Virus record (IMG/VR): IMGVR_UViG_3300008255_000101
Coordinates: 32,001-96,000 of that record
Source of the DNA: a virus
Length of the DNA: 64,000 bases
Strand: one strand, 5' to 3'
Below are positions 37,636 through 58,425 of the stretch, one piece after another. Each line of letters starts with the position of its first letter. Position 1 is the first letter of the stretch. A model generated the notes under the pieces. It was not told the DNA's origin and made no database searches. It worked only from the letters and a program-made list of their open reading frames with translations. The position numbers were made by a program, and so were the translations under genes.

Positions 37636-37648
37636 ATTAGAAGATTAT
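37636..37648 (-). promoter_or_regulatory. Putative late promoter motif (ATAATCTTCTAAT)
   Basis: Consensus copy ~20 nt upstream of the start at 37616. Confidence 0.7.
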
Positions 37649-37662
37649 CCTGAGGTAAGGGG

Positions 37663-38100: not shown

Positions 38101-38101
38101 G

Positions 38102-39086: not shown

Positions 39087-39746
39087 CTAGGGCTTAACAG
39101 CATCTTGGTACTCTACCTTGGTGGCTTTTCCGTCAGTAGAGAACGGTGCTGTGTAGACGATCTTCTTGGCATAGGCGCCCGAGGGGTCACTAGCACGGTA
39201 GATGAGCTCCTCCACCACATTACCCGTATCGATGGTCCGGTCTATTACCCAGTTGTCCTCATAGTATTCCACTGCGGAAGTGGATAGGGCCCCCAGAGCC
39301 GTTGCAGTGACACGCGCCCAACCTGATGCAGCTGGGGAGTAACCATAGTTATGGGCATTACTTACGGGGTTATCACGGACGTAGCCTGGAGTCACGCCCA
39401 CGACACCCACCGCCCTAGTCAGAGCGGAAGCAATCGCACTCTCCACGCCGGCAGCGCTTACTTCTGTGGCACGCAAGAAGAGTGGGGTGTTCGCGAAGGA
39501 CACACCGTCGAAGGGAGCACCCAGTGCCTGAACTTCCACCAGGGTAAGTTCGAAGTTTACTTGGTCATCCCCGCGAGGCCGTGCGGGGATGTTGGGGATG
39601 TTGCTCTTTACCTGGACATAGTTTCCTGTCACATCGGTCAGGGACAGGTACAAATTAACGGAGGCAACGTCTCCCGGGACTTTGTCGAAGAAAATCCGAA
39701 TCTTGTCTTCTGAGACAGCTAGGATTTGTAAAACTGCATTAGCCAT
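39087..39746 (-). CDS. FN3-like virion protein, paralogue of 57307..57930
   Basis: DKIRIFFDKVPG...NLYLS...KSNIPN...GVESA versus EKITVYWDLLPG...RLYWS...QDNIPN...SVESS. Confidence 0.65.
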   Translation of the reverse strand: MANAVLQILAVSEDKIRIFFDKVPGDVASVNLYLSLTDVTGNYVQVKSNIPNIPARPRGDDQVNFELTLVEVQALGAPFDGVSFANTPLFLRATEVSAAGVESAIASALTRAVGVVGVTPGYVRDNPVSNAHNYGYSPAASGWARVTATALGALSTSAVEYYEDNWVIDRTIDTGNVVEELIYRASDPSGAYAKKIVYTAPFSTDGKATKVEYQDAVKP

Positions 39747-39782
39747 TTTGATTACCTCATCTGATTGGTGACTATAACTGCC

Positions 39783-39795
39783 ATTAGCAGATTAT
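39783..39795 (-). promoter_or_regulatory. Putative late promoter motif (ATAATCTGCTAAT)
   Basis: Motif copy overlapping the glycosyltransferase stop codon, ~37 nt upstream of 39746. Confidence 0.6.
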
Positions 39796-42700
39796 ATGCC
39801 GGAATCCTGTACCCACTGATCAGCGGCCCTCTCCCAAGTGTACTGGGAGACATGATCTCGCACCTTGTCGGCCTCTACCCTGCGGTAGTCCTCATCCTTA
39901 AGAAGGGCTATCACTTCCCTTAAAAAAGCACCCTGGTACTCCGGAGTCCCACTCCACCGGTGGGGCTCCAAACCTTCGGGACCTTTTATGAATAATCCTG
40001 AAGGTCCTAGGGTGGTCAACAGTCCTCCGTAGGGGGTCGTGACCACAGCATTACCGGCTAACCCGTTCTCCACTGCTGTGATGCAGAAGGTCTCGGAGAA
40101 CCACGTAGGGTATGCCCAAATCTTAGACTCCTTCTGCCGAGTCGCCAGTTCTTTTTTGTTTATGCGGCCCAGGTAGTTCACCCCAGGTTGCTTCATTTGC
40201 TTCTTAATGGCCTCTATACGGTCGAGTCCCACCTGATCACCACGAGTCTTAGCCATGGACTCCCAGTTATGGAATCCGTAAGCTACGTCGATTTCAAAAT
40301 CAGGAATCTCCTTGCGGATTTCTGGAAGCAGGTGTAATAACAACTCTAGACCCCTGTCAGGGGAGGAGCTGTACACCATCTTATTTTTCTTGATGCTATG
40401 GTCGACGTCACCGTAGTTGTCATGACGCACGCCGTTGAAGGTCATCAGCATTTTGTCATTGGGTATGCTGTGATGGGTACCAAAGAAACTCTGGTGCCAG
40501 TCGCTAAGAACTCCAAACTTTTTGACAGCCCATTTCATGGTGTCGTAACTCTTTTCGTGGTGGAGCCACACATCGTGGACCATCACGTAAAGGTTGGTGG
40601 TGTGCATCTTGAATGTTTTTAAGGGCTCACAGGTACGGGATAGGATACACATATCAATGTTTCGGTACTCTACATAATCTTTGAACCGGCTGTGGTGTAA
40701 GTAACTGACACCGTCCCGATCTATTTCCTCTACCTTAGGGTCCCCGAACAAAGTGGTCCTGTAGCCCCTCTTGCTGAACTCAGCGGAAAGCTCAGCGGCC
40801 CAAGTCTCCGACCCAGCCATACCCATGTCTACGTCTTCACGACCCCACTTCTCCCACGCTGGTCCTGTGTAGATAACCACTTCTTTCTTTTCCCACTTTT
40901 TGTGGAACAGTTGGTGGTTGTAGGCGTCTTCCTTATCATAGGATTCCTTGTTTTCCCCCTGGTAAGCCCCTCGGGAGATGCCACCAAAATGGTAAACGAA
41001 AGAGTCCAGGGATTGCCCTATGCGGTACCCCTGCTTAGAAATCCTTCGGGCATGGTCAAGATCCTCACATCCATTTTGGTACTGGGGATCCAGGTAACCC
41101 ACGTCGTTCCAAGCGGACTTGGCAAAGATAGTGGCATAGTAGGCTACCCACGCTTGGTCCATATACTTGCCTTCCAACTCTTTGTTCGAATTTTCCATGA
41201 AGGCGTTTAGCTCATCCAGGCGCGGGATGATTTGATCGTATTTCATACCGGGGACTAGCTCTAAACCGCTTGAAGGAAGTCTCATGTTGAAAACGGGTGA
41301 CTGCGGGTCACGGGGATTGCTGTGTAGCCAACCCCTATCACAATTGGATAGCACACCACAGACGGCCAACCTATCGGTGGTCTCCATCTTTTTAACCATG
41401 TTGGTTAGCCACCCCTTCGATACTAGTACATCAGAATTTAGAATGACAAAGAAACGGGAGTCCCCCGTGGCGGACACTCCATCGTTTACCGCTTCCGAGA
41501 AGTTTTTCCTAACGCCTCTGCTACCCAGAACGGTTATACCCTTAAGGGTGTCCAGGTAAGCCCAGGTGTCCTCATTACTACCCGCGTCCGATACCACAAT
41601 ATGGTACGGGTATAGGGTGTTCATATGAATGGATGTTACGCAGGCCTTTAGGTATTCCACTTCATTGTACACGGGGATAACAATGGGTACGGTCTGCTTT
41701 AGGGCCAGGGACTCGGTAGGTTGTGCAGGGGCTGTAACGGCGGGTACCGCAGGTAACGCCGCAGGTACGCTATTGACAATCTGGTCCGCCTTGGCTACCC
41801 ATTTCTTGGTAATGGCGTCCACAGAAAATTTCTGAGCGACATCCTGTCCGTTGAGGCCGACCTGTATACGCTTCTTGATGTCCTTGAGTTCTCTGAGGGC
41901 CTGTAACCATTCCCCTTTACCGTCACAGATATAACCACTGCGACCGGGTTCTATGAACTCCTTGTAGGCAGGCAGAGGTGAAGCCACCACTGGGATGCCA
42001 AAGGCCATGGCCTGCGCTGCCTTAATGTTGGACTTTGCCGGCTGCACATCAACCCGCTGGGGGCACAGAACCACATCAGCTCGGGACATGACTTCCTGCC
42101 ATGTTTCTAATTCCCATTTTTCGTCGGCATTATCCCACTCGGTACACACCACCAGGTCATAACCCGCCTCAGCTATAACATCTTTAAGGTAGTCTGTCAC
42201 CAAAAAGGAATTACCACCCATACCCATGTAGAGAGCCACCGGGTTTAGGGGTACCCCGTCCTGATCAAATCTACGGAGGAAATGGTCGTGGCTCTTTTCC
42301 ACTTTTTCCACAGCGTCTTCAACCACAGCCAATTTTTTGGAGAAAGGTTTGGCTTTTTCTAAAAGAGCCGAGGAACAAGTTATCACCGCGTCAGCGACAC
42401 CCAGGATCTTCTGGACCAGGGGGTTACCCACCAAGTCTTCGTTTAGATCCACTACGACTTTTATGCCCTTAGCCTGGATGTCCTGAATTAGGCCATACTC
42501 TTCCTCGTCAAAAACGGAAGATACCACCACGTTACTGGAGGATAGTTGGTCTAGCAGCCAGGACCTCTCAGCCTTTTGGTAATTTGTAAAGAGTACAGAG
42601 GTCACTCCCTGTTCCTGCATTTCCTGGTGGATGTTTAGGCGCCTTATACGCTGGGACGGATCCACGGGATTAAAGTACCGTAGTAACCAAGCCACCTTGA

Positions 42701-43841
42701 CTTCTTCATGGGGTTTGCTAGGGGCTCTTACAGGCTCGGGGTCGGGGATGGGGCCATCTACTTTACCGGTGAGAAAGATTTTATTTCTCTGGTAATTGGC
42801 ATCCTCCGGGTAATGCATCAAAAACTCTTCTACCACTTCTAAGGACTTTTTGTATTCCCCCCTGTCGTGGTAAATCTTCATGAGCTTATCAAGTGGGTAC
42901 TTCTTATAAAAGGCGGGCTTAGCCCCAAAGAGCCCCTGGGGGTCCTTGGACTTGGCGGTGAGGAATAGTTGTTCGGCTTCCTGCACGTCCCCCTGATCCT
43001 GGTAATAGCACCCCAAGAAATAGTACACTTCGGCGTACTGGTTGGAGTACATGGAAGCTTTCCTCAAGAAGGACACCGCCGCCACCGTATCATTTTTTGA
43101 AAACGTGTAATAGTTGTACATCTTGAGACAAGCCACTACTTTGTTATGGGCATAATCGGTAGGGCCCTTCAGGTATTCCTCGAATATCTTGACGGCCTCT
43201 TCCTCTTTTTTGTTGTCCATTAAATCTTTGGCGTAGTAGAATTTTATACGAGGGGTAGCATCGCCTCTGTCGTACTCCTTCTTGAGTATCGTTAGGTTGC
43301 GGGTAGGATCGTACTCCCTAGTTCTACGATGGTCCACCGCGATATCCGGTCTTTCCAGTCTTCGGTGCCCGCCATGGGTCAGGATGTACTCGTGGATGGG
43401 GTCATACCACCTGAGATCCTTACCGTTACGGACTATTCTCTCACGGGGGAGCGTTACCGATGGGCGGCCCTGGTCGTCGTGGCCGTAATTGTAAGTGATG
43501 TAAACGTAATCGTACTGGTGAAGGGATTCCTTCATATCCAGAATTTTCTTGTAGTTGTCGGGGGTCAGCTCGTCGTCAGCGTCCAACCACATGAGGTAGT
43601 TGCCGGTAGCCTGATCAAAGCTAAAATTTCTAGCCGCCGAAAAGTCATGCACCCACTCGAACCGAGGGGTCTTGTCAGCATACTTGCGGGCTATGGCCTC
43701 TACCTCAGGATCCTCCTGAGTGAGTGCCACTACGATCTCATCGAACAAAGGACCTTGGACGCTCTTTAGGCATCTCTCCAATTCCTTGGATTCGTTTTTA
43801 CCGACTATGACGCAAAGGGACAGTTTAACCTGTTGACTCAT
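39792..43841 (-). CDS. Multidomain glycosyltransferase GT2-TPR-GT4-GT2-GT4
   Basis: GT2: LSLCVIV...DFSAARN...WLDADD. TPR helices. GT-B: KSNIK...AMAFGIPVVAS. Second GT2: IVIPVYN...DAGS...LNSD...EDLD...VYHFGG. Second GT-B: GSETW...YSSSPDRGL...ETFCITAVE. Confidence 0.9.
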   Translation of the reverse strand: MSQQVKLSLCVIVGKNESKELERCLKSVQGPLFDEIVVALTQEDPEVEAIARKYADKTPRFEWVHDFSAARNFSFDQATGNYLMWLDADDELTPDNYKKILDMKESLHQYDYVYITYNYGHDDQGRPSVTLPRERIVRNGKDLRWYDPIHEYILTHGGHRRLERPDIAVDHRRTREYDPTRNLTILKKEYDRGDATPRIKFYYAKDLMDNKKEEEAVKIFEEYLKGPTDYAHNKVVACLKMYNYYTFSKNDTVAAVSFLRKASMYSNQYAEVYYFLGCYYQDQGDVQEAEQLFLTAKSKDPQGLFGAKPAFYKKYPLDKLMKIYHDRGEYKKSLEVVEEFLMHYPEDANYQRNKIFLTGKVDGPIPDPEPVRAPSKPHEEVKVAWLLRYFNPVDPSQRIRRLNIHQEMQEQGVTSVLFTNYQKAERSWLLDQLSSSNVVVSSVFDEEEYGLIQDIQAKGIKVVVDLNEDLVGNPLVQKILGVADAVITCSSALLEKAKPFSKKLAVVEDAVEKVEKSHDHFLRRFDQDGVPLNPVALYMGMGGNSFLVTDYLKDVIAEAGYDLVVCTEWDNADEKWELETWQEVMSRADVVLCPQRVDVQPAKSNIKAAQAMAFGIPVVASPLPAYKEFIEPGRSGYICDGKGEWLQALRELKDIKKRIQVGLNGQDVAQKFSVDAITKKWVAKADQIVNSVPAALPAVPAVTAPAQPTESLALKQTVPIVIPVYNEVEYLKACVTSIHMNTLYPYHIVVSDAGSNEDTWAYLDTLKGITVLGSRGVRKNFSEAVNDGVSATGDSRFFVILNSDVLVSKGWLTNMVKKMETTDRLAVCGVLSNCDRGWLHSNPRDPQSPVFNMRLPSSGLELVPGMKYDQIIPRLDELNAFMENSNKELEGKYMDQAWVAYYATIFAKSAWNDVGYLDPQYQNGCEDLDHARRISKQGYRIGQSLDSFVYHFGGISRGAYQGENKESYDKEDAYNHQLFHKKWEKKEVVIYTGPAWEKWGREDVDMGMAGSETWAAELSAEFSKRGYRTTLFGDPKVEEIDRDGVSYLHHSRFKDYVEYRNIDMCILSRTCEPLKTFKMHTTNLYVMVHDVWLHHEKSYDTMKWAVKKFGVLSDWHQSFFGTHHSIPNDKMLMTFNGVRHDNYGDVDHSIKKNKMVYSSSPDRGLELLLHLLPEIRKEIPDFEIDVAYGFHNWESMAKTRGDQVGLDRIEAIKKQMKQPGVNYLGRINKKELATRQKESKIWAYPTWFSETFCITAVENGLAGNAVVTTPYGGLLTTLGPSGLFIKGPEGLEPHRWSGTPEYQGAFLREVIALLKDEDYRRVEADKVRDHVSQYTWERAADQWVQDSGI

Positions 43842-44010
43842 TTTCGGGTCCTTTCTCTGATATGTGATTTGATCGGAAATCCGCCAGTGCTCTTCGGGCT
43901 TCTTCTTGGGGATCCGTCATACGGGACGCAGCAAAAGACAAGAACCACTCTTTAAGTTGTGGGTCCACTCTGATAGACCACGTGGTCTTGCTGTTGTTTT
44001 TAGTCCGCAT
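43825..44010 (-). CDS. Ribbon-helix-helix (CopG/Arc-like) DNA-binding protein
   Basis: 61 aa with a beta-alpha-alpha pattern TTWSIRVDPQLKEWF...EEARRALADF. Overlaps the glycosyltransferase start by 17 nt. Confidence 0.65.
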   Translation of the reverse strand: MRTKNNSKTTWSIRVDPQLKEWFLSFAASRMTDPQEEARRALADFRSNHISEKGPENESTG

Positions 44011-44030
44011 ACGTATACAAGTGCATACGT
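44007..44030. promoter_or_regulatory. Putative RHH operator: GCATACGT direct repeat and ATACGTAT palindrome
   Basis: GCATACGT at 44007-44014 and 44023-44030, running from the promoter motif to the RHH start codon. Confidence 0.45.
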
Positions 44031-44031
44031 T

Positions 44032-44044
44032 ATTAGAAGATTAT
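44032..44044 (-). promoter_or_regulatory. Putative late promoter motif (ATAATCTTCTAAT) for the RHH-glycosyltransferase operon
   Basis: Consensus copy ~22 nt upstream of the RHH ATG. Confidence 0.7.
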
Positions 44045-44652
44045 CGGTTGTATGTTATAACGTCGGCAACGGTAAGCATGGTACGGTACCTTCCAAGTCT
44101 TTCCTCGGTGAAAAAAGTGTTGGGGGTGAAACCGTACAACCACATCACACTTTCCCTAAACGAACCCGTTAGCAGGAGAGGTACCAGCTGCATTGTCTGA
44201 GCAGCTATTTCCAAACTGGAGAAACCCTCCAAGCTAGGACTAGATATACACTCCTCTCGGAACAGGGCTATAAACTCAAAACCGACCATCATATTTTGAT
44301 TTACTTCCGTGGAGTTATCCACTACTGCCTGAAGCCGGGTGCAGTTGACCTGGTACTCGATCCTAAACCTTTCTTCTGTTACGAGCACACCAAAACAATC
44401 CAATACCTCGTGATCCCCGAAGGACTGCAAAACAAGGTACGCTTCGTTTACCCAAAATGTTTTAGAGTTGTAAATGCATGACCCATCTACAAAAGTTACA
44501 CGGCTTACGTAGTTCATGTCTTTAATGTCCTGTAAAAAGGTGTATGTGAAGCTATCATGGTCGGCTAGGGTGTTTATGTAGGACAGAGCTAAAGCTTGGG
44601 TGTCGAACTTTCCTACCAGAATGCCTGTGGTTTCGTTTAGTGCGTATATCAT
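44041..44652 (-). CDS. Hypothetical protein (possible fibre assembly chaperone)
   Basis: 203 aa, ATGA-coupled to the upstream fibre-associated gene. Confidence 0.6.
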   Translation of the reverse strand: MIYALNETTGILVGKFDTQALALSYINTLADHDSFTYTFLQDIKDMNYVSRVTFVDGSCIYNSKTFWVNEAYLVLQSFGDHEVLDCFGVLVTEERFRIEYQVNCTRLQAVVDNSTEVNQNMMVGFEFIALFREECISSPSLEGFSSLEIAAQTMQLVPLLLTGSFRESVMWLYGFTPNTFFTEERLGRYRTMLTVADVITYNR

Positions 44653-45239
44653 TCCATTACCAGGGTTAGGGTTGGACGAGTGGCTGAGGACGTGGAGGCT
44701 ACATTAGCATTGCCGCCCGTGGATAGAGACCATTCATATACGTCCCAAGTGTTACTTGTACCTACCCCTACGATTTTTTTAGTCGTGTAGCGCTCCCCCA
44801 ACCAAAACAAGTAGGTAGTGCCGGAAGTCAAAGTAGCCCGAGACCCTGAGGCCCATGTTTTGGTGTGGGTGTACTTTGTATCCGCTCCCAAGGTCCCCCC
44901 GTTAACAAACGACACACCCGATGTGGAATTGATACCGATAAACCCAGCAAGGGGTACGGCGTTACTGCCAGACGCTGTCCATATACCCCAGCAGTAGTTA
45001 TACGCCTGGGTGGTGTTGTAGGTCATGGACATGGATACTAGAACTTGATTCGACGGGGGGGTGTACTCCACAAAAAGGGCATAAGCCGAGCTATCCAACC
45101 ACTCTTCTGTAGGGCCGGCGCCCACCTCCCAAAGTATATCCCCTCCCCTAACAACCTGAACGATGTTGTTAGAACCCAGGGCGATCTCGCTCACCCCGGC
45201 TGTGAAAGAATCCATTTGGATGTTAGTAATACTGGCCAT
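44649..45239 (-). CDS. Fibre-tip/receptor-binding-like protein
   Basis: N-terminal IALGSNNIVQVVRGGDILWE resembles the adaptor motif that follows fibre proteins ending in ...YF[LI]. The remainder is beta- and aromatic-rich. Confidence 0.5.
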   Translation of the reverse strand: MASITNIQMDSFTAGVSEIALGSNNIVQVVRGGDILWEVGAGPTEEWLDSSAYALFVEYTPPSNQVLVSMSMTYNTTQAYNYCWGIWTASGSNAVPLAGFIGINSTSGVSFVNGGTLGADTKYTHTKTWASGSRATLTSGTTYLFWLGERYTTKKIVGVGTSNTWDVYEWSLSTGGNANVASTSSATRPTLTLVME

Positions 45240-45240
45240 A

Positions 45241-47814
45241 TTAACCTATGAGGAAATACATCCTACCCGCTATACGGGATGATACTGCGGGCATAGCTGT
45301 TACCACTTCGATGGAGCTTACCGGGTAGGAGGATCCCGTGGCGCCGGCTACAAATAAAGCTGTGGACGGTGTAGCCCCTGTAACTCCCCTAAGACCTGTG
45401 ACGCCTTGAAGTCCGGCACCCGTCAACCCCCTTAAGCCCGTCAGTCCTCGCAAACCCGTAACTCCCCTTAATCCCGTAACACCCTGGATACCCTGGATAC
45501 CCTGGATACCCTGGATACCCGTTACTCCCTGAATACCTACACCTGTTAATCCTCTGAGACCAGTTACTCCGGGTACACCCTGTAAGCCGGTTACTCCTTG
45601 GGTACCTATCCCTGTAGCTCCCGGAGTCCCTGCTAACCCGGTCACACCCCGTAACCCCGAACCAGTGGCCCCCTGAGGCCCAAGTAGACCAGTGACCCCC
45701 TGAGGTCCCGTGACACCTCCTGATGAGTTACCCGTCACAGACGTCCAGGTGTTAGCACCCCAAGTCAGACCCTGCACGGATCTGTAGTTGATAGCGCCTG
45801 AGCTATTAAAGGAAACCTGCATGCGGTACGGATTACTCCCGTCATCCGGGGGTATGAAGTTCAGGACATAAGTCGTCTCCATAGCCCCCGTAGCGGTGGA
45901 CTCCTTCTGCAGGTCACCGTTTATGGAACCCATACCAAACGACTTTATGGATAAGTAAAAATAGTCAGTATCATCGAAAGTGTTACCCACGGCAGCTTGC
46001 ATAGCATCGTTGGCTACGGCCTCCGAAACTGTGGCGCATAATCTCATGGGTGCCAGTATCGATAGCATCCCCAAGGAGTCCAAATGGGTACCGAAGCTCC
46101 CAGTCACGTCGATTACCAGGGCGCAAGCCGCTACGGGGTCGGCGTCCGATATGCAGGATAACAACGTGGCGTTAGTAGCTATGTTGTTTAGATAGGTATA
46201 CACGGCGGGGTCCCCATAGGCGTCATAGGCACTCACTAGCTGCTGCAGCACCCTACAGGCATCATAACCGTGCCCCTTAACACTCGACCCCGCTATGTCA
46301 TTACCGTCGTAGTCACACCAGTTACTGGGTAACCCGTACATGGCCGAATTCTTAGTCTGGTTCTGCTGGAGCAACCATAGCCCATCGTCGTAGACAGTGT
46401 CCCAACCCCTGCTGGGGTCTTGTAGAGAGAACGTGCGTATCGCTTCCAAGTCGATGTAGGAAGGATTGCAGTAGCTGTTCCAGCTATCCCCGGGCCCTAT
46501 CAACCTTTTTGTACCGCTCCCTGTGGTAGCATTGAATGTGTCAAAGTTGTAGATGTTGGCCAGCATGCTTAGGGCATCAGCCTTGTGGGAAGCGTCACCA
46601 AATTTCCCATACATGGTGAATAATATTTGGGCCACATGGATATCCGCATCGGAAGCTGAACCTGATCCCGTAACAGTACCCGTAAAACCTTGCACCTGCC
46701 AGTTCATCAGACCGCGGCTGCTTAGGTTGTCATTCCAGTATGCAAAAAGTTTGTTGAACTTTGTAACATAGGGCGATGAGGGGGAGTCAGCCACGAAAGC
46801 AGCAAGCATCATACCGTAGGAAATACCCTCAGATACAGTGAGTTCGCCAGTGAGGTGGTTTTCATCTATCCATTTTATACGGGCTAGCGTGCCGTCCACA
46901 TTCTCTTCGTAGAACTGGGTGAACCAGGAATCCACGTAGTCCTTGAACTGCTGAGAGTACGTGGCGTGGTTTTGGAAGGTTATGCCGTGGGAGTACATAT
47001 AGCCCGTTCCGTTTAGGACCACTTTGTACACTGTGAAGTTAGATGTGGTCTGCTCCGTGTCGTACTGGAACTGAAGCCCCACTAACTCGCTCAGGGGTAT
47101 GTCCCTAACGGTTCCAAAACCCGAAGGTTGGGCAAAATCGGACCACACTAACTCTAGAGTGGATTCCGCAGCTGCTATGGGTAAAGTTGTGAACCAGGAG
47201 GCTCCGTCCCCAGACAAATGGTCCCGGAGTTGCAGCTTTAGGGCTGTGTCCGATTTATAGGTTACAGTGACACCCATGTAGGTGCTAATGTCCACCGTAG
47301 GCTTGTCAGGTAAGGCCAGTGCCGAGGATTCCTTAAAGTCGAAATTAACACCACCGTAGGGGTACTGCCCCGCGCCGGAATTACCCAATAGGGCTACTGT
47401 TACGGCTAGGGACCCAGTGTCCAATTGTTGTTGTAGATCCCCGACGGCCGGGTCCACGGTAGAACCCAAAGCGTCAATGAAAGACACCCAGTTACCAATG
47501 GTAGCACCTGATGAGTCCCTGCAAAGTATTGGTAGGCTATTGCAATCGGTTAGTACCACATCATTAGTATTCTGGGGATATGTGTAAGTGGGTACAGTCA
47601 CAGACCCAGTCTTGGTGTCAGACAGGTATAACCCTGGCCCCGTGGCCCCGTTTGGGTCACTTTGCATCTGGGCCACTAGCTCATTAGCACTTAGAGCGTG
47701 CCAAGCACTTAGGGCCTCATGGTACTCAAATTTTGTATCCCCCACAACACCTACTGTCAAGTCTGCAGGGGAGTCTGCTTTTAGTGCCTCTATGCTCTCA
47801 TAAACTACGATCAT
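45241..47814 (-). CDS. CBM11/CIA30-like + GH8 glycoside hydrolase + collagen-repeat fibre protein
   Basis: GH8 motifs [29 protein letters not shown] and YDACR. CBM-like [10 protein letters not shown]...VTVTYKSD...WSDFAQP. About 115 aa of GXY near the C-terminus. Confidence 0.85.
45370..45720 (-). repeat. Collagen GXY repeat region, including a perfect (CCCTGGATA)x4 microrepeat near 45482-45520
   Basis: GVTG/GLTG/GIQG repeats seen directly. Confidence 0.85.
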
Positions 47815-50800
47815 GCTTTGATCCCCACGAAGTATCTAGTTGTGGACTCATTTCCCGCTGTCAGGGTACTGGCCGGAGGAGTGCTCTGGTTATCAAATTT
47901 CATTGCAAGGTACGGCGCTATATTGAAATTAGAAGCAGCCGATACCCCCGCGAATACGGGGGAGTTCATAGTGGTTACTATGCCCAGGTAGTAGATGCTG
48001 CCTCCCGTCAAAGTGTATGTAGACCCCGATACGAAATTACTGAGGGTGTAGCTCCTTAAACCAGCGGAAGGGTTTGTGTTTATAGACGTGTAGGCTACCA
48101 ACGACAGGGTGCTGCCTGACAGGGAGTACAGGACATAGTATAGATCTCCCCCTGATGGCTGTATCAGGAGGGCTTCCATTGTTGACGTCGTGGTGATAGC
48201 CATATCCCCGCTTGGTATCATTATGCTCAGGTGCATGGTGCGGGTATTGACGGTAAGTGCCGCTGCAGATATAGCCGAAGCTGGCAGTAGCGTCCTTTCG
48301 TAGGCTACAGAACCTCCTCCTCCAGACGGTCCCGTAGATCCGGGTACACCGGTTACTCCCTGGGTACCAGTATAACCTACACCAGTTACACCCTGGCTAC
48401 CCTGCAGACCTGTGACACCACGTAAACCAGTTAAGCCCCTAATGCCTGTAACACCCTGAACACCAGTGGCACCCTGGGGACCTGTGGACCCTTCGGCACC
48501 AGCCGCTGAAGCAGATGCGGCTCTTGAGATAGTCAGGTTATCTACACGGTATAGAGACCAGTTCCCGCCCTGGTAGTAGATAATGACGCGAGCCATAAAG
48601 GTGTATTCCAGAGAGAAACTAGGGAAATCCCCTAGTGCTAAACTCTGGGCGCTAAGAGCTTCCTGGCTACTGGCACTTCCTGCGGATTGACCCTGTATCC
48701 ATAGATACCTCTTGGCTTGGCTAACTGCATCTGCCGCAGCGGGTACCCCCATTAGCCATACGGCCATGTAGGTATTATTTGACATGGGGGTCTGTGTCCA
48801 GGTACCTCCCGAGTTCTGGTTATAGAACGGCGTGTTTCCGCTTAGCGGGACTATGTCAGACGCAGTCGTATTAAATGTAGCTGTACCTGTTCCTGTCCCC
48901 GTGAGGGAGTATTGGCAGTAAACACCACTTGTTAGTGCTGTGGACAGGGTGAGTAGGTCCTCGTCCTTGATGACTGTAGACGCTACATCCGGCCTTCTAT
49001 CGGCCACGGTGGTACTAGCCAAAACATAGTTACTGAGGGAACCACCTGACTCCCTGTAAGTACCCACCACCTCATGGAACTCTCTATGATCCTCCCACGG
49101 CATGGCCAACCCGTGACACTCCCTAATGGAGTATAGGTAGGTACCTGCGCTGTTATACACCACATAGGTTATCTGCAGCATGTCAAAGGACCACGGTGTG
49201 GTGTCCCACACGTAGGACGTACCATTATAATAAAGGAACAGAGGGGCCGTTGGGGATGCCGAGTGGGCGGGGGACACCCACCCGCTAGTAAGATCTGGTA
49301 TTAGTACACCCCGCCAATAGGCTTTAAACGTGCCAGTAAGTGCTACAGTACGGGAGGCGGAGTTGTAAGTTACTACGGGGGCCGACGTATCGTCAAAACC
49401 AGTGGGGTCTTTTAGAAGATCCTCATAACCAGTGGCTACACCAGTGGCGCCCTGGATACCGGTGTTACCCTGAGATCCGGTGTACCCCTGGATTCCTGTG
49501 GCACCCTGCACGCCTGTTGTTCCTTGAATACCTTGGGCTCCAGTAGTTCCTTGGGTACCTTGAACTCCTGTTGCTCCCTGAATACCTTGGGCTCCAGTAG
49601 CACCTTGGGTACCTTGAACTCCTGTGGTACCCTGAATGCCTGTTTCCCCTTGGATTCCCTGAATACCTTGGATTCCTTGAATTCCTTGGACTCCTGTTGT
49701 TCCTTGAATACCTTGAACACCAGTTGCTCCTTGAATACCCTGAATACCTGTGGCACCCTGGATTCCTTGTACACCAGTTGCTCCTTGAATACCCTGAACA
49801 CCAGTAGCACCCTGAATACCTTGGGCTCCAGTAGCACCCTGAATACCTTGGATTCCTTGAACGCCTGTAGATCCCTGGATTCCTTGAACCCCCGTCGACC
49901 CTTGGATACCCTGAACACCAGTTGTTCCTTGTACTCCTGTGGCACCTTGGATACCTTGGACTCCAGTTGCTCCTTGAGCGCCTGTTTCCCCTTGGATGCC
50001 CTGTACGCCAGTAGCACCCTGGATTCCTTGAACACCAGTAGTTCCTTGTAAACCAGTTACGCCCTGGCTACCGGTGTTACCTTGAACGCCTGTAGATCCC
50101 TGGACACCTGTTGTCCCTTGGGCACCCTGAACACCAGTAGCGCCTTGGGCACCTGTACTCCCTACGAAGTCCGCCCAGTACATAGTAGTGCCATCGTAGG
50201 TCAGGGCCTGGCCCAACGTGGGGTTTAGACCTGTTAGGCCCATTAGCAACTGGGCATAAATGACACCCTCTTTGGTCCACCTTCCCGTAACTACATTGTT
50301 GAAATCTTCTATTTCTAGGACTGCCCCACCGGTAATACCCGTCCCGTCCGCTATAGTTAAGGGTCCACCTAAGATGCTAGTAACTATCTCTGGGTCAGGT
50401 GAGTTGTCGTAGGCCTTTTGTAAAGTGGTAACGCCCACTGCACCAGCTCCTGCCACAACCTCACCTAATTTGGAGACACCTACGAAGGAGGCCTCTGTGG
50501 GGTCACTTAGGGAGGTGGCACCCTGCTGCACAGCCAGAACTCCGTATAGGGTGGCGTTTTCTTCTACGTCCTTCAACTTATTAAACACTTCTCTCTCCAC
50601 ACCCGCTACGGAATCTGCCAGGTTACCGTACACCTGCTGACCGTACTGCACAACGGTTCTGCCCGAGGCATACAAATAAAATCTCTGATTTGTGAATTTG
50701 TTGTTGGGTACGGCAGTTTTGGTACCGTTTAAATCGTAGAAGTTGGGGGAGATAAAAGTGGTAGGAGATTCCTCAGTGTTTGGGTCCTGGGTAGTGTAGC

Positions 50801-51917
50801 TAAATGTCAGGGGGGTAGCGACTGGGATCCCCTTAGTGTGGAGGTCCTTCACTTCTGTGCCGAAGTTTATACCGTTTCCAAACAGCGTACCCTCAGACTT
50901 GTTTAACCTAAGGTCCCCATCGTGTGGGGATAGCACGTTACCGCTTACATTTATGAACCCTAGTGCGGCCATAAAATCTCTTAACTGGGAGAAAGGTGAT
51001 ACAGACACATCTGGTTGCGTGTTAGCTACAGTTATGCTCGTGCGGTTTCTGTGCACCACCTTACCCAGCCAAACGTAATCCCTTCTTTCTGCGTTGGTGG
51101 GCTTGGTTGCGTAACTCAGCACGTTGTACTCTTTGTCCAGCAATACGTAGGTACTGTCCTGCGTAGCTAAGTTCGGAGGGGACACCCCCGTGGTACCGTT
51201 CCACTTTAGCTCTGTAATCGACGGAAAGTCGGGGTTAGACCAATCGTCTACCACAATAGCGGTTCCACTAGCTATGTCGTATTTTGTGCTGTCCAAGGGA
51301 TTGATTGATAGGGCCCCTCCTTCTATTAATCCTGTGGAATTGGACCACAAGGATCCCTTACTCATGTGGTCTAGGGGTAACCTGCCTACAGTGTCCAATG
51401 GGGCTATGCCACCCGAAGCTCCCACAGCCGCGTCAAAGGTATCAAACGCTCTCTGGACCTGGGTGTCCGCGACCGAAAGAATATTCGCGAAATTGCTTGT
51501 GTCCAGAGATATACCACTGGCGCCTTGGTGTTCTCCAACGTAGGTCATTACTGCCTGGCTGGTGGGGATAGCCGTGGACGGGCCTGTCTCGCCTAGTACG
51601 AGAACTTCACTAACTAGCACTATCTCTGAAGGCTTACTGTCCAACCCTATCAAGGCCTTGTATGCCTCGGTTCCTTTGGAACTGAGAAAGTTAGCGGTCT
51701 TGTCCGTTAGGGTATACCTGTCTTGTCCAGTTATCTCCTGGCCATCCATATCCCATAAACTTACGTTACCCTGAGTTATGGCGCTAAGGAGGTCACCCGC
51801 AAAATTTCCAAAAATTAGGGTATTGTAAAAGACTTCCTTCGTTTCCCCTGTAGCAAATGTCACCCCGTTAAGACTAAGGGGCGCTCCGCTGGTATTCTCT
51901 ATACTTTTGATTTCCAT
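47811..51917 (-). CDS. Collagen-like fibre protein with globular domains
   Basis: 1368 aa with a central ~240-aa (GIQGATGVQ)n region, a second short GXY stretch and beta-rich domains. Confidence 0.85.
49440..50165 (-). repeat. Degenerate 27-/18-nt tandem repeat encoding GIQGATGVQ collagen
   Basis: Recurrent ccttgaatac/accagtagcacc units on the + strand. Confidence 0.85.
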
Positions 51918-51926
51918 AATACAGCC

Positions 51927-54900
51927 TTAGGGGGTCTCTGGATCAGTGCTCTCGAACACAAGATTGAGCATGAATCTAGCCGCAGCATTTATTTGATTAT
52001 TATTACTGCCTAAATTCGTGAACTGCCACCCAATCATGTCGTTAGCATTTCCTGTTATTCCTGTTATTCCTACGGCACTTACCTCTTGGTAAGCGGTAGT
52101 TCCCAAATTATTGTAGATACCGCACAGGGTTGGGTTGATATCGAGATCGATACTACCTATGGAGGTTCGGGAGGTACCGTCAAGCACGAATAACTCAATC
52201 CTTATCTTCGGGGAAGTACCCACCGTGCCCTGAGCAACAGCACACCTGGCTATGTGGCCATAGGCCGCTACCAACTTCCACCCGAAAGGAGTGACGTAGG
52301 GGTGAACACCTCCGTCCTGAAACTGTATGGAGCTATGTGTAAGTGGGGCCCCAAATGGATTGGCATTTCCAGATTGGATGGAGAAGTACCCCAGGGTACT
52401 AGACGCTTGTCCCATCATACCTGATAGCACGTAATCCCTAGGACGAGGACCTTGGCCTACGGGGCCAGTCTCACCCTGGGATCCGGTTTCTCCCTGTATG
52501 CCCGTGGCGCCTATCAATCCTGTTACGCCCTGGATACCCTGTACACCGGTAACGCCCTGGGCACCTGTGGCTCCTTGCACACCAGTCACACCCATCAGTC
52601 CCGTACTTCCGTCAGGTCCCGCATTACCAGTTATACCCTGGTACCCCGTGGCACCATCGGGACCCACGGACCCAGTCAGTCCATCCTCACCCGTCACACC
52701 TTGAGTGCCGTTGGCTCCTGTGATGCCTTGGACTCCCTGGATACCGTTGGCACCTGTTAAACCTTGTACGCCCTGAGAACCTGTCACACCCTGGACACCC
52801 ACAGCACCAGTGATACCCTGTATTCCTTGAGTACCCGTGACACCCTGGGTTCCCGTGCTACCCTGGACTCCGTTAGCACCTGTGGTGCCACGTAAACCTG
52901 TAATACCCTGAAGCCCTGTGATGCCCTGAGAACCGGTGATGCCCTGCACCCCGTCGAGTCCCGTGACACCCCGTGTACCCTCGGCGCCGGTGATTCCCTG
53001 TGTGCCATCGGCGCCGGTGATTCCCTGTACTCCATCAGTCCCAGTAATACCCTGGACACCGTCCGCTCCTGTGACACCGCGGAAACCTGTCAGTCCTTGT
53101 ACTCCGTTGGTACCCGTGATACCCTGGGTACCGGCTATGCCTTGAGTACCGGTAACACCCTGAAGGCCCTGAAGACCGGTGATACCGTCAAAACCAGTAT
53201 CCCCCTGGGATCCCTTTTCGCCAGTGATTCCCTGGGCACCGTCCGTTCCTGTAACACCCTGGATACCGTTGGCGCCTGTGGTGCCCTGCACTCCCGCGAT
53301 CCCCGTGATACCCTGCACACCCGCGGCACCAGTAGCACCCTGAAGGCCTTGAGTACCTGTGATACCGCCGAACCCAGTATCCCCCTGAGGACCCTGGTCA
53401 CCTGTGATGCCTTGAACACCGTCAGTACCAGTGGTTCCCTGCTCCCCTGCCACACCTTGTTGCCCTGTAATTCCTTGGACACCGCTTGCGCCCGTAATTC
53501 CTCTAATACCGGTGATGCCCTGGGTACCCGTATTACCTTGGGTACCAGTAACCCCTTGGTTACCGCTAGCACCAGTAATACCCATTAGACCGGTGATACC
53601 AGGTAAGCCGGTCTCTCCCTGAATGCCTTGTTCACCCGTGATACCCTGAGGACCTTGAGACCCAGTTATGCCTTGGGCGCCCGGAGAACCTGTTTCACCC
53701 GCAGGACCATAGGGTCCCGTTACTCCTTGGGAACCCGTGGTACCCTGTATACCCGTAGGTCCTTGGGAACCTGTGGCCCCCACCCCGGTGGATCCTTGGA
53801 TACCTTGGGTACCAGTCTCTCCTTGGGTACCAATACCTGTTTCACCTTGAACGCCTGTTTCTCCCTGGACGCCCGTTAATCCCTGGGACCCGGTGGCTCC
53901 TTGAATACCCTGAACACCAGTAGCGCCTTGAACACCAGTAGCTCCTTGAATACCCTGAACGCCTGTTGCTCCTTGAATACCCCGAACACCGGTAGCACCT
54001 TGAATGCCCTGAACACCGGTAGCACCCATTAAGCCCGTTGACCCATCGGGGCCGGGATTACCTGTGATACCCTCGAACCCAGTAATACCCTGAACACCGT
54101 CCACGCCTGTTATACCGCGGAAACCTGTAGGACCCTGGGCTCCCTCAGCACCTGTTAGACCGGCAGGTCCTGAAGGGCCTGTAAGACCTCTTGCACCTGT
54201 GTCCCCTTGGACGCCTTCAATACCCGTGAGACCCTGTAATCCAGTGTCGCCTTGAACACCATCAACACCTGTGAGGCCCTGTGCCCCCGTATCCCCTTGG
54301 ACGCCTTCCGAACCTGTGGCTCCTGCGGACCCCGTGATGCCCTGGGCACCAGTGTCCCCTTGTACGCCATCTACACCTGTAGGGCCCTGAACGCCCGTGT
54401 CACCCTGTACGCCTTCTGACCCGGTAACACCTTGAGCACCTGTGGCTCCCACACCCGTGGCGCCTGGGATACCCTGAATACCAGTTTCACCTTGGGTCCC
54501 TACACCAGTTTCACCTTGGGTACCTGTGGCACCCATTAAACCTGTGGATCCGTCTGGACCAGGGTTACCCGTGATACCGTTGAAACCTGTTAAACCCTGG
54601 ATACCGTCGGTACCAGTTATGCCTCGGAAACCTGTTAAGCCCTGGATACCGTTGGCACCGGTAATTCCGGTTACTCCCGTGATACCTTGGAGACCCGTTA
54701 GGCCTTGTTCGCCCTGGACACCGTTGAAACCGGTGGTTCCTTGAACACCGCTGCCACCTGTTATGCCCTGGAGACCAGTAGAACCCTGAGTGCCCTGTTC
54801 GCCAGTAATACCCTGGGGTCCCTGGGAACCGGTAATACCCTGAGCACCGGGGGAACCTGTTTCTCCAGCGGGACCGTAGGGACCTGTTTCTCCAGCGGGA

Positions 54901-56108
54901 CCCGTGGATCCGGACACACCAGTGGGGCCTTGGGAACCTGTGGCCCCCACTCCCGTTGAACCTTGAATGCCCTGAATACCAGTTTCACCCTGGGTACCTA
55001 CACCTGTCTCACCTTGGCTGCCTGCGCCAGTGTCACCTTGGGTACCTGTGCTACCCTGGATTCCTTGGAGACCAGTCTCACCTTGTACTCCGGTAGCACC
55101 TCTTAAACCTGTCGACCCATCCGGGCCCGGGTTACCCGTGATACCCTCAAAACCTGTTAAGCCTTGTATGCCCTCAGAACCAGTTATGCCCTGGAAACCT
55201 GTAGGACCTTGGGAGCCATCAGCACCTGTAAGTCCCGCCGGACCGGCTGGACCAGTAAGTCCCCTTGCCCCCGTGTCGCCTTGTACGCCTTCAATTCCAG
55301 TAGGTCCTTGAAGACCTGTGTCGCCTTGCAGGCCCTGCACACCAGTGTCGCCTTGCAGGCCCTCGGATCCAGTAGCACCCACAGAACCCGTTACGCCCTG
55401 GGTACCTACAGGACCTGTAATGCCCTGATCACCAGTGTCACCCTGGACACCGTCGATACCCGTAGGGCCTTGAACGCCCGTGTCACCTTGTACACCTTCA
55501 GCACCAGTCACACCCTGAGCGCCCGTGGCTCCCACACCGGTGGCGCCCTGTATTCCTGTGTCACCCTTGGCACCCGTAGCACCCTGAGTGCCAGCACCGG
55601 TCTCGCCTTGGAGACCCGTAGCACCCATCAAACCTGTGGAACCGTCGGGTCCTGGACTTCCCGTAATACCTTCGTACCCTGTTAGGCCCTGGATACCGTC
55701 CGCACCAGTTATACCTGAATCACCCGTGATGCCCTGGATCCCTGTAACTCCTGAAGTACCCGCAGGACCCGTCACCCCTTGAGGTCCGGTAACCCCTAAA
55801 CCTGTGTCCCCCTGGGGCCCAGTGGGGCCGTCGCTCCCTATGTAACCGATACCCGTAACGCCCTGTACACCAGTGGGCCCCTGGGGCCCTGTTATTCCTG
55901 GTCCCGTGTAGCTAGAGGAGCCACCTCCAGAGCAAATCCACTCCGTTCCATTGTAATACTCTAAGCAACCTGTAAGTCCGGCAGGGTTCGAAGTGTCCCC
56001 GTGGTAGATTACGTAACCCTCTTCAGCCACTAGGCTATCCCTCTCCGCCGTGGTAAGTACGGGAAGTTGAACGATTCGGCCTTTGTGTTTAATATTCAGG
56101 GTTTTCAT
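51927..56108 (-). CDS. Giant collagen-like fibre protein (~1150 residues of G-X-T/G-X-Q)
   Basis: N-terminal [10 protein letters not shown]...YYNGTEW fibre-type motif. GXY from about residue 70 to 1220, then a ~175-aa C-terminal beta-rich domain. Confidence 0.9.
52450..55905 (-). repeat. Collagen repeat region with higher-order duplications
   Basis: The block GITG[NS][PA]GPDGSTGL[MR]G occurs 5 times. [31 protein letters not shown] occurs twice. Confidence 0.85.
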
Positions 56109-56150
56109 GTGCTATCGCTAGGGTACGGGTTCATGCCTTGCCCCATGGCG

Positions 56151-56163
56151 ATTAGTACATTAT
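56151..56163 (-). promoter_or_regulatory. Putative late promoter motif (ATAATGTACTAAT)
   Basis: Motif copy ~43 nt upstream of the giant collagen gene. Confidence 0.6.
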
Positions 56164-56197
56164 AGCGGTAAGCCCCCGTGTTTAGTGGGGTTGTGGG

Positions 56198-57307
56198 CTA
56201 CCTAGCGTACACCCAGAGTTTGTATAGAGCCAGGCTCGTGTCGATATTTATCTTGACCACATCGTCCGATGTATTGGACCAATCGAAAGACCTTGTCCTT
56301 ACTCTCATTTCGGAAACAGAGCTATCGTGAGCGGTGGAATCCATCCTGAGATTACGGGGCCTTCCGTGCTTTGTGAGGCACCCCTGTATGAGAGTTTCAC
56401 CCAGTATGCCGAAGTCCGCCAAGTTAGGTTTACCGTCATTAACTGAGTCGTTACCTTCCGCCGTGTTGTTGGTGGTGTACAACATAGCACTAGGGTAGTT
56501 GGTATCGTTGCTGTCGTCATTAAAGTAAAGATGGACGGTGGCTAGCGAATTGTTTGAAAAATGGGAGCATTCCACTTTGATATTGCTATAAACTGAGGGG
56601 TCCCAGGTTATGGATCTCTGCGTCGTCTCTGGAGCACTGAGGCTGCTGAAAGAATCTAGGAGTACCCAGTCGCTAGGGGGAGCTGCCGGCGCGGATGCTC
56701 CCGTGGCACCTTGGGCGCCATCGATACCGTAGATACCACCTGGGGTGGGCAGGTATCCTGAGGTGGACACAATTGTTAGGTGCCAAGTCCCCACTATAGG
56801 GGTTCCGTCAACTAGAGACACTTCCACATTGTAGAGGTCCGCAGCACGTATCTCCGTGGGAAGAACGAGTTGGTTCAAATTATCGTACACCTGGACAATT
56901 ACTGATTCAGATCCCAGGTTGTGGTACACGGGTAATATGTCATTAACAAGGTCAGCCTGTGTGAAGGACCTAGCGTAAGAACCTATGCTATTGCAACCAC
57001 CCGTCTGGGAGATCAAGGTCACTCGCCAGGTTCCGGTTATGGGGGTACCGTCCACCAGAGAAACATCAACGTCGTACCCGTCGTTAATAATTATTTCAGA
57101 CGGCAACACTAACTGGTTGTTTTCATCGTACACCTGCACAATGACATTCTCGGTGCCAAAAGTATGATGCACGTTCACTATGTCGTCGACCAGGTCAGCT
57201 TGAGTGAACAGCCTAGTGAAAGCGCCTACACCGTCCCCGGCACAACCCGTATAGCCACCACCTCCACCACCGCCGTATGCCGGGCTCTGTACGAATCCTA
57301 GCATCAT
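56198..57307 (-). CDS. Fibre-associated protein with two tandem ~75-aa H[NT][LF]G beta-modules and a short collagen linker
   Basis: FTQADLV.DI..V.H..G.E.VIVQVYD..NQLVLP...VSLVDGTPI.GTW occurs twice. Linker GIYGIDGAQGATG. Confidence 0.75.
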   Translation of the reverse strand: MMLGFVQSPAYGGGGGGGYTGCAGDGVGAFTRLFTQADLVDDIVNVHHTFGTENVIVQVYDENNQLVLPSEIIINDGYDVDVSLVDGTPITGTWRVTLISQTGGCNSIGSYARSFTQADLVNDILPVYHNLGSESVIVQVYDNLNQLVLPTEIRAADLYNVEVSLVDGTPIVGTWHLTIVSTSGYLPTPGGIYGIDGAQGATGASAPAAPPSDWVLLDSFSSLSAPETTQRSITWDPSVYSNIKVECSHFSNNSLATVHLYFNDDSNDTNYPSAMLYTTNNTAEGNDSVNDGKPNLADFGILGETLIQGCLTKHGRPRNLRMDSTAHDSSVSEMRVRTRSFDWSNTSDDVVKINIDTSLALYKLWVYAR

Positions 57308-57930
57308 TAGTAGTGCACCACTATCCTTACGTCGGCTATGTCGCCGTCGGTTATGATGGAGACTCCGTTGTCCTTAGAAAGATTTCTGAAGATGGTGTAG
57401 TACACCAAGGGGTATACAGGCATGCTCTTGGTTACCGTAGCGTCCACTCCCGTTATATCCACGTAGACCACTGCAGTCTTGGCCGCATTGGAGTTATTGA
57501 ATATCTCCATGAAGGTCACATCGTGTGTGAACTTGATGCGGGTAGCATTTGAGTTTGCTACGTGAGTGGATATATTCTCTGACGCTGTGATGGGACTGTT
57601 TAGGGCCCCCGCGTCGGCCATCTGGTCCGCGATGTAGGGAATCAACCTAGGTGTACCCAAAGACGATTCAACCGAGGACCCGTCTACCGAAGTGATGGAC
57701 AGGTAGAAGGTGTCGCCCTCGGTAAGGCCTATTTTGGCTCTGTTAAAACTCGCAGAGGTGGCCCTCTTACCAAAAGTTCCAAAATTAGGGATGTTGTCCT
57801 GCAGCAAGTTAAAAGTTCCCGCAGACCCTGTGGGGGACCAGTACAGCCTAAATTTTTTCGCACCAGGAAGTAAGTCCCAGTACACTGTGATCTTTTCGGA
57901 ATTCTCGTGGAGCTGTATAGCGGGCAACAT
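57307..57930 (-). CDS. FN3-like virion protein
   Basis: FN3 pattern ITVYWDLLPGAKKFRLYWS...FYLSITSVDGSSVES. Confidence 0.7.
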   Translation of the reverse strand: MLPAIQLHENSEKITVYWDLLPGAKKFRLYWSPTGSAGTFNLLQDNIPNFGTFGKRATSASFNRAKIGLTEGDTFYLSITSVDGSSVESSLGTPRLIPYIADQMADAGALNSPITASENISTHVANSNATRIKFTHDVTFMEIFNNSNAAKTAVVYVDITGVDATVTKSMPVYPLVYYTIFRNLSKDNGVSIITDGDIADVRIVVHY

Positions 57931-57987: not shown

Positions 57988-58425
57988 TTAGTGGATGTTC
58001 TTAGCCTTTTCCTTTAAGGCTTTGAGCCGACGTTCGTCGATCCCTGCCGAGTTCTGGGAGTTCTCCTCTTTCTCCACGTATTTCTTGAACTTAGTGGAGT
58101 CCTTGAGTCCGTTGTCCTTAGCCAACTGCTCCGCTTCTTTCCATGAGGAAACCTCTTGGCCGTTCACATTGGGGACCAACTTATTTTTACCACCGTATCT
58201 CTCAAGTTGGCGTATCTCCAGCTGAGCGTTTTTCTTCTTACGAAGGCGCTCTTGCTTTTGGTACTTACCTACTGTGGTAGCTTTAACGAAAGAGCCCGTA
58301 CCCCCTGATAGCACACGCCTCATAGGTTCTTGGCACTCCCCACATTTGAACTCGGGGTCCTCAGTCATTCCGTGCGTCTTGGCAGCTGTGTGCCCGTTTT
58401 CACACCGGTACTGGTATAAAGGCAT
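57988..58425 (-). CDS. FmdB-family zinc-ribbon protein (second copy)
   Basis: MPLYQYRCENGH...CGECQEPMRRVLS. AGGAGG RBS. Confidence 0.75.
   Translation of the reverse strand: MPLYQYRCENGHTAAKTHGMTEDPEFKCGECQEPMRRVLSGGTGSFVKATTVGKYQKQERLRKKKNAQLEIRQLERYGGKNKLVPNVNGQEVSSWKEAEQLAKDNGLKDSTKFKKYVEKEENSQNSAGIDERRLKALKEKAKNIH

Follow-up and report, generated by a model that had tools for sequence, protein, structure and literature searches.

Does a phage that encodes collagen-like fibres close to a large glycosyltransferase glycosylate those fibres itself? The question is raised by a gene cassette at positions 39087-57930 of the stretch of viral DNA analysed here (the window, 64,000 nucleotides), which is part of a 150-kb fragment, about 32% of the genome, of a very large uncultured phage. 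The cassette encodes three collagen-like proteins and a glycosyltransferase of 1349 amino acids (aa) with four catalytic domains. We regard it as rather likely that with this cassette the phage encodes its own system for the O-glycosylation of proteins, namely of the collagen-like fibres of its virion. As a phage version of collagen O-glycosylation of the SgtA–BclA3 type, enlarged to four catalytic domains, it holds up well in silico, and the predicted glycosylation of the fibres is well supported at that level.

The cassette and its collagen repeats

The argument concerns four genes in the first place:

39792..43841, minus strand: glycosyltransferase P0001, 1349 aa, with four catalytic domains (Pfam and PHROG domains)
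51927..56108, minus strand: collagen-like fibre protein, 1393 aa, 375 triplets (Pfam Collagen, E 3e-161)
47811..51917, minus strand: collagen-like fibre protein, 1368 aa, 102 triplets (triplet runs; phrog_16641)
45241..47814, minus strand: GH8 glycoside hydrolase with a C-terminal collagen stalk, 857 aa, 36 triplets (Pfam)

A contiguous cassette of about 19 kb had been proposed in a preliminary description of this DNA, and it proved to be real. Every gene in it lies on the minus strand and the packing is tight, with intergenic gaps of -4 to 89 nt; the exception is a gap of 199 nt directly 5' of the 1349-aa glycosyltransferase gene. In the order of transcription, the genes encode proteins of 207 and 369 aa, the collagen-like proteins of 1393, 1368 and 857 aa, and two proteins of 196 and 203 aa; after the 199-nt gap follow the glycosyltransferase and a 219-aa protein. 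Head-region genes flank the cassette on one side and a homologue of a head-tail connector on the other, and the enzyme gene sits among virion genes.

Counted in runs of four or more G-X-Y, the three collagen-like proteins contain 513 triplets in total. The Y position is occupied by Thr in 201 of them (39%) and by Gln in 183 (36%), Lys is not among the common Y residues, and X is mostly Val, Ile, Ala or Leu. The triplets had been described as dominated by G-X-T, which was an overstatement, and as having hundreds of Thr at Y; of the latter claim the Thr-rich character stands, and the actual number is about 200. Four collagen-bearing proteins had also been counted, and only three of them are real. 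The product of 56198-57307, the 369-aa protein, was ruled out as a collagen by its single genuine run of five triplets (GIDGAQGATGAS), by the lack of a Pfam collagen match and by its homologues from relatives, in which no collagen run was found.

The first module of the enzyme is homologous to SgtA

In Clostridioides difficile, SgtA is a protein of 358 aa with a GT-A domain followed by TPR repeats, and its gene lies directly upstream of bclA3. In vitro it transfers beta-O-linked N-acetylglucosamine (GlcNAc) from uridine diphosphate (UDP)-GlcNAc onto Thr of BclA3 collagen-repeat peptides, and BclA3 carries chains of N-acetylhexosamine (HexNAc) with a capping glycan (PMC7157674). Transfer by SgtA-type enzymes depends on Mn2+. 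The N-terminal part of the phage enzyme is of the same kind:

42756..43823, minus strand: module 1, SgtA-like GT2 (residues 7-171, with WLDADD) and TPR domain (residues about 179-362), from homology and an AlphaFold2 (AF2) model

Residues 4-358 of module 1 aligned end-to-end with the product of a GT2-TPR gene of C. difficile (33% identity, E 5e-58). At this bacterial locus a frame of 361 aa is followed directly by a BclA3-type collagen gene (712 aa, 153 triplets, 71% Thr at Y), and we take the frame to be sgtA because the organism, the length (361 against 358 aa) and the position fit the published description (PMC7157674). The motifs DFSAARNFSF, WLDADD, RER and DPIHE are identical in the phage module and the C. 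difficile protein. The GT2 domain is matched by Pfam and NCBIfam at residues 1-171, and its DxD motif, WLDADD (D87, D89, D90), was invariant in 24 and in 18 homologues. Right after it comes the TPR domain (Pfam TPR_2, TPR_19 and TPR_14 at residues 249-353), and an AF2 model of residues 1-376, with a predicted local distance difference test (pLDDT) score of 93, has paired helices at 179-362. The nearest solved structures by sequence were Listeria GmaR (E 1.6e-17) and then SunS, and the best folds for the model were those of the SunS/ThuS peptide glycosyltransferases (template modelling score, TM, 0.6-0.69).

The alignment of module 1 was also searched against one genome per prokaryotic species, which gave more than 586 homologues, and the best 80 were analysed. 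All 80 came from Bacillota, mostly Clostridia, with 31-38% identity over the whole module. A collagen-like frame was present within 6 kb in 53 of the 80 loci (L132-L211), several of the others being cut by contig ends; the collagen genes mostly started less than 200 bp downstream of the enzyme gene, and Thr made up 45-97% of their Y residues. SgtA-like genes are widely paired with Thr-rich collagens across Clostridia and other Bacillota, far beyond C. difficile, and several of these loci hold two or three collagen genes. In the window, the three collagen genes lie 1.4-16 kb upstream of the enzyme.

The phage module and SgtA (CD3350) therefore share their GT-A and TPR architecture, homology over the full length and the pairing with a G-X-Thr collagen gene. 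They differ in that SgtA is a stand-alone protein of about 360 aa, whereas in the phage three further catalytic domains follow the module within a protein of 1349 aa, and in that the system described here is phage-encoded, its presumed substrates being virion fibres. The repeats differ as well: G-(V/I/A/L)-T triplets alternate with G-X-Q in the phage, whereas those of BclA3 are G-P-T. Because module 1 is homologous to an sgtA-type gene, and such genes are paired with Thr-rich collagens in bacteria and in three phage lineages, it would prime collagen Thr. Priming of Thr in G-X-T collagen by the GT2-TPR module had been inferred beforehand, and the full-length homology to SgtA and the co-occurrence described below support it.

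Enzyme and collagen genes occur together in huge phages

An alignment-based scan of IMG/VR viral contigs yielded 20 loci encoding the enzyme, where a scan with a single protein had found none. The arrangement seen in the window is kept in its closest relatives (L001, L002 and L012). L007 and L010 have collagen genes immediately 5' of the enzyme gene, and in L017-L020 the enzyme is present as four consecutive genes with giant collagen genes on both sides; there module 1 is a stand-alone protein of 515-516 aa, whereas in the window it is fused to the other modules. Enzyme and collagen genes adjoin in three of the four gene arrangements.

Sampling independent of the enzyme was performed with a conserved neighbour protein (30990-32375) as the marker. 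It gave 80 further loci, and the whole records were then searched for the enzyme and for Pfam Collagen. Among the records that were at least 90% complete, four had the enzyme together with dozens of collagen matches (G001, G012, G039 and G040), seven had neither (G011, G014, G016, G019, G020, G023 and G027), and none was discordant (Fisher p = 0.003 for four with both against seven with neither); a further record of this completeness, G010, had only a weak TPR match and no collagen. In all records examined, collagens were found in 16 of the 17 with the enzyme and in 2 of the 27 without it, counts that include close kin and amount to only three independent contrasts. A complete relative of 485 kb from GenBank had neither the enzyme nor collagen.

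A quick maximum-likelihood tree built from the marker showed enzyme and collagens paired in three separate places, namely in the window clade of eight, whose sister lacks both, in a deep clade of four, and in G012, which stands alone in a negative group. G012 encodes a collagen of 2424 aa (774 triplets, 50% Thr) at a distance of 5 kb from a 1122-aa enzyme in which module 1 is fused to module 4. Enzyme and collagen genes are thus gained and lost together across related huge phages. Co-occurrence had been named in the preliminary description as a check on the proposal, and it was borne out in three lineages. Because enzyme and collagens are strictly present or absent together, the idea is directly testable.

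In the two enzyme-free records with collagen, the match is in each case one small frame, 230-267 aa long (G018:C1:307533-307709, which is L131 7528-8220, and G030:C1:18678-18836). At Y, Lys or Arg takes the place of Thr in the G018 frame, and a longer frame on the complementary strand overlaps it.

When module 1 was placed in a FastTree tree with midpoint rooting (branch supports not inspected), the phage sequences fell into at least three groups: the window clade with L007 and L010, the split-gene phages beside bacterial sequences, and G012 with two small phages. This grouping is consistent with repeated acquisition.

The enzyme has four catalytic domains and is predicted to be soluble

The architecture GT2-TPR-GT4-GT2-GT4, first read from the translated sequence, was confirmed by Pfam and PHROG matches and by the relatives in which the domains are separate genes. 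After module 1, the following domains were delimited:

41742..42716, minus strand: module 2, GT4/GT1-like (GT-B), residues about 376-700 (Pfam Glyco_trans_1_4, Glycos_transf_1 at 565-667)
40986..41693, minus strand: module 3, second GT2, residues 717-952 (Pfam Glycos_transf_2 at 720-847)
39807..40889, minus strand: module 4, C-terminal GT4 with an E-x7-E motif, residues about 985-1345 (phrog_2170 at 1076-1345)

When 24 full-length homologues were aligned, invariant residues were found in each of the four domains. Module 2 has the invariant motifs GMGGNS and QPAKS, module 3 the invariant motifs SDAGS and NSD, and in module 4 E-x7-E is invariant; because invariant motifs are kept in each, all four catalytic domains look active. 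Module 2 is split at about residue 520-530 in two relatives. Module 3 gave weak PDB matches to chondroitin synthase and GalT1. An MshA-like NCBIfam match of module 4 was below the cut-off, and this module is joined directly to module 1 not only in G012 but also in podovirus ctKR88. No transmembrane segment was found in the enzyme, the top 19-aa Kyte-Doolittle window (1.44) lying inside a Rossmann-type domain, and from its sequence the 1349-aa protein is predicted to be soluble. It lacks the transmembrane segments of membrane-bound polysaccharide synthases and of undecaprenyl phosphate (Und-P) glycosyltransferases of the GtrB-like kind.

There are 382 homologues of the enzyme in the protein database, many of them full-length at 40-62% identity and encoded on contigs of up to 469 kb, and also shorter forms that span 60% or 71% of the protein. 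No close relative was found among GenBank phages by megablast or tblastn, no further GT2 gene was found in the window, and no gene for sugar-nucleotide synthesis (Pfam Epimerase) was detected on the 150-kb contig, which holds about 32% of the genome.

Many homologues are interrupted near residue 1243, inside the last GT4, by an insert of about 400 aa with PF14890/PF14528, which we take to be intein and homing-endonuclease families; examples are the genes of 1750-1800 aa in L008, L011, L014 and L015, and the proteins P0046, P0048, P0064 and P0069. A methyltransferase-type domain (PF08241/PF13489) is added in P0085, P0091 and P0050, the last being the 1575-aa protein of L013, and such a domain would fit methylated sugars in the glycan.

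Alternative substrates and acceptors

Several observations, in addition to the small number of independent contrasts, weigh against collagen glycosylation as the function of the cassette. In the commonest arrangement, found in 11 of the 20 loci, the enzyme comes directly after a zinc-ribbon gene with no collagen between them; two of these loci have collagen 4-7 kb downstream, and in each of five records with this arrangement collagen genes occur in other parts of the record, at distances of up to about 250 kb. Two complete phages of 42 kb carry a homologous GT2-TPR protein (28-30% identity) in their head modules and have no collagen gene. Because small phages free of collagen carry it and GmaR acts on flagellin, the GT2-TPR family is not restricted to collagen and therefore accepts other substrates. 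The X position is Val, Ile, Ala or Leu in the phage repeats, as opposed to Pro or Ala in repeats of the BclA type. Finally, the bacterial sgtA-like loci contain no homologues of modules 2-4 and thus offer no precedent for chain extension.

It could be argued from these points that the enzyme acts on other virion proteins (capsid, decoration or tail proteins), that collagens are a side substrate at most, and that the linkage reflects shared ancestry of a structural block. The 11 loci in which the enzyme stands right after head-region genes agree with this. So does one of the two 42-kb phages, podovirus ctKR88 (L041, MW202524.1, 3147-11978), in which a protein of 761 aa that joins module 1 to module 4 is encoded two genes after the major capsid protein; further glycosyltransferases and methyltransferases follow this gene, and the complete genome has no collagen gene. 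Glycans are also reported on the C-termini of capsid and tail-tube subunits of mycobacteriophages (Freeman et al. 2023, cited in PMC12619734). Nevertheless, enzyme and collagens were jointly gained and lost in three lineages, and module 1 is homologous to the collagen-specific SgtA. The motif G-x-T-[GA], moreover, shows no clear enrichment in the window outside the collagen proteins, with 20 observed against about 16 expected. We consider this explanation unlikely. Outside the collagen runs as a whole the motif was observed 32 times against 19 expected; most of this excess falls in the collagen proteins themselves, and a virion-wide G-x-T-[GA] sequon was not supported.

A second alternative accepts that fibres are modified and holds that the four domains build no single chain, each adding one sugar to a different site or protein, for instance in differing triplet contexts or on those fibre domains that are not collagen. 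The missing counterparts of modules 2-4 at the bacterial sgtA-collagen loci would agree with this, and the direct fusion of module 1 to module 4 in G012 and ctKR88 shows that the modules recombine. However, multi-domain glycosyltransferase fusions and neighbouring split genes usually represent successive steps of one pathway, and since the four domains are fused here, are encoded by consecutive genes in other phages and keep their invariant motifs, a single pathway is suggested for them too. The HexNAc chains and the capping glycan of BclA3 (PMC7157674) likewise speak against separate acceptors, which we find quite improbable.

A target outside the virion (host envelope polymers, as in serotype conversion or superinfection exclusion, phage DNA or a small molecule) is very improbable: phage glycosyltransferases are best known for the modification of DNA and O-antigen (PMC12619734) and module 3 weakly resembles polysaccharide synthases, but the enzyme has no transmembrane segment, its TPR domain is a protein-binding one, the glycosyltransferases closest to it act on proteins, and its gene lies inside the structural block in tight association with collagen genes.

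Proposed mode of action

If the enzyme glycosylates the collagen-like fibres, as we favour, the soluble 1349-aa protein would act late in infection in the host cytoplasm. Module 1 would work like SgtA of C. difficile, its TPR part holding the collagen-like chain while the metal-dependent GT-A domain with its DxD motif moves the first sugar onto Thr at the Y position of G-X-T. By analogy, this first sugar would be a HexNAc taken from a host UDP-sugar. The GT4, GT2 and GT4 domains would then lengthen the primer, giving short glycans on up to about 200 sites. Chain extension by modules 2-4 is suggested by the fusion, by the split-gene forms and by general knowledge of multi-domain glycosyltransferases. 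In this scheme we infer the acceptor residue, the sugar, the extension of the same chain, the position of the fibres on the virion and the purpose of the glycan. The preliminary description had further proposed that one enzyme builds one oligosaccharide, that the fibres form a coat and that the glycan would serve helix stability, adhesion or shielding; these parts of it are conjectural.

A bolder version may be put forward tentatively, and we doubt that all of it will hold. The cassette would be the huge-phage counterpart of the exosporium nap: one assembly-line enzyme with four domains would prime hundreds of Thr in long collagen fibres and build a defined oligosaccharide there, giving dense O-glycosylation; enzyme and collagens would have been gained or lost as one package on three or more occasions, and glycosylation would be required for a virion collagen free of hydroxyproline.

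Few types of fibre are as common in phage genomes as the collagen-like one, and to our knowledge glycosylation of virion proteins has been shown only in mycobacteriophages, with other substrates. Literature searches found no paper describing SgtA-like collagen glycosylation in phages; what is new is that four domains are fused and that the enzyme is gained and lost jointly with collagens. The cassette points to a second, mechanistically defined route of virion glycosylation, in which an SgtA-type enzyme acts on collagen-like fibres. If true, this would explain how viral collagens without hydroxyproline are stabilised or protected, and an SgtA-like gene together with a G-X-T collagen would be a sequence marker that predicts glycosylated virions in metagenomes. 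It would also provide a compact soluble four-step glycosyltransferase for the glyco-engineering of collagen-like materials.

Comparison with known glycosylation systems

In Bacillus anthracis, BclA of the hair-like nap of the exosporium is O-glycosylated on Thr with an oligosaccharide. The 1393-aa phage protein is similar to it in having a long G-X-T-rich region between a short N-terminal and a globular C-terminal domain. In BclA the C-terminal domain is a C1q/TNF-like trimerising one; that of the phage protein was modelled as all-beta at low confidence (pLDDT 48). The phage enzyme shares with GmaR and SunS/ThuS the combination of a GT2 enzyme with a helical-repeat domain, and those enzymes glycosylate proteins or peptides. 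Their substrates are, however, flagellin and Cys-containing peptides, and there are no such genes near the phage enzyme.

We know of no collagen-like substrate and no SgtA-like enzyme in the glycosylation of mycobacteriophage virions. The likeness lies in phage-encoded glycosyltransferases that act on the phage's own structural proteins (Freeman et al. 2023, cited in PMC12619734). Mimivirus and other giant viruses resemble the present phage in that collagen-like proteins and glycosylation enzymes come from the same viral genome (review, PMC9614988). The phage enzyme and Mimivirus L230 belong to different enzyme families, no hydroxylase Pfam domain was found in any cassette protein, and Lys is uncommon at Y. 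L230 hydroxylates Lys and glucosylates the resulting hydroxylysine.

Organisation of the collagen-like proteins

The 1393-aa protein consists of a 70-aa N-terminal domain, about 1150 aa of G-X-Y and a 173-aa C-terminal domain that is probably all-beta. In the closest relatives, the first collagen gene keeps the N-terminal 70 aa. A single-sequence AF2 model of residues 1215-1393 was all-beta and, with its pLDDT of 48, too poor for a fold search; no PDB sequence match was obtained for the fibre domains, this C-terminal domain included.

The 1368-aa protein begins with a tail-fibre-like domain of 585 aa, followed by 81 triplets, a middle domain of 310 aa, 21 triplets and a C-terminal domain. The match to phrog_16641 (tail fibre) covers residues 187-541. 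The middle domain (48501-49433, minus strand) shares 42% identity with a segment of a collagen protein at 20246-21160 of L020, which belongs to a distant phage lineage and carries the enzyme in split form. This likeness suggests an exchange of fibre domains.

The 857-aa protein matched Pfam GH8 (E 1e-16) and Pfam Collagen (E 7e-12), and a BcsZ-like NCBIfam match was below the cut-off. Its tail of about 40 aa is also conserved in relatives, where it closes the last collagen gene.

The fibre genes seem to be built from modules, the collagen block being bracketed by the 70-aa N-terminus (55899-56108) and by the last 26-38 aa (45241-45370). These modular ends are kept at the start and the end of the collagen block in L001, L002 and L012, and in L001 both are on one protein.

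A collagen-like tail fibre is also present in the cultured Tunturiibacter phage Tunturi_5 (L040, record 28905-38126), which has a genome of 309 kb. This fibre (gp29) has 1469 aa and 110 triplets with 60% Thr at Y, and gp35, a stand-alone GT2 weakly related to module 1 (E 9e-6), is encoded 4 kb from its gene, which makes the phage a possible model for experiments.

Other genes of the cassette and its surroundings

The remaining genes of the cassette are as follows:

57307..57930, minus strand: conserved protein of 207 aa that accompanies collagen genes in relatives
56198..57307, minus strand: protein of 369 aa with a duplicated module of about 90 aa, a conserved cassette member (PHROG virion structural protein)
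44041..45239, minus strand: two small conserved proteins of 203 and 196 aa, encoded between the collagen genes and that of the enzyme
39087..39746, minus strand: protein of 219 aa, 3' of the enzyme, only in the closest relatives

Homologues of the 207-aa protein adjoin collagen genes in L020 and lie near collagen genes in L005. In the loci of relatives, the 203- and 196-aa proteins are present only where the collagen cassette occupies this site. Searches of Pfam and PHROG, and of NCBIfam for the small proteins, gave no family match for the 207-, 203-, 196- and 219-aa proteins. Atlas searches gave nothing above the threshold: the leads for the 203- and 196-aa proteins were uninformative, and that for the 219-aa protein was a weak one to a possible immunoglobulin (Ig)-like fold. 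A scan for promoters and terminators showed no excess over chance.

Outside the cassette, a protein of 145 aa with an N-terminal FmdB-like zinc ribbon is encoded at 57988-58425 (minus strand); this is the zinc-ribbon gene that immediately precedes the enzyme gene in 11 of the related loci. The protein contains two G-x-T-[GA] motifs, where about 0.1 would be expected. Kinship with the small protein at the same position in ctKR88 was ruled out, the two being unrelated. The 439-aa product of the next gene (58436-59755, minus strand), in the head-gene region, had no Pfam, PHROG or GenBank phage match. The idea that it is the major capsid protein was dropped, as the alignment shows an invariant CxC...CKH signature instead; this signature is kept across 13 homologues and resembles a SWIM-type zinc finger.

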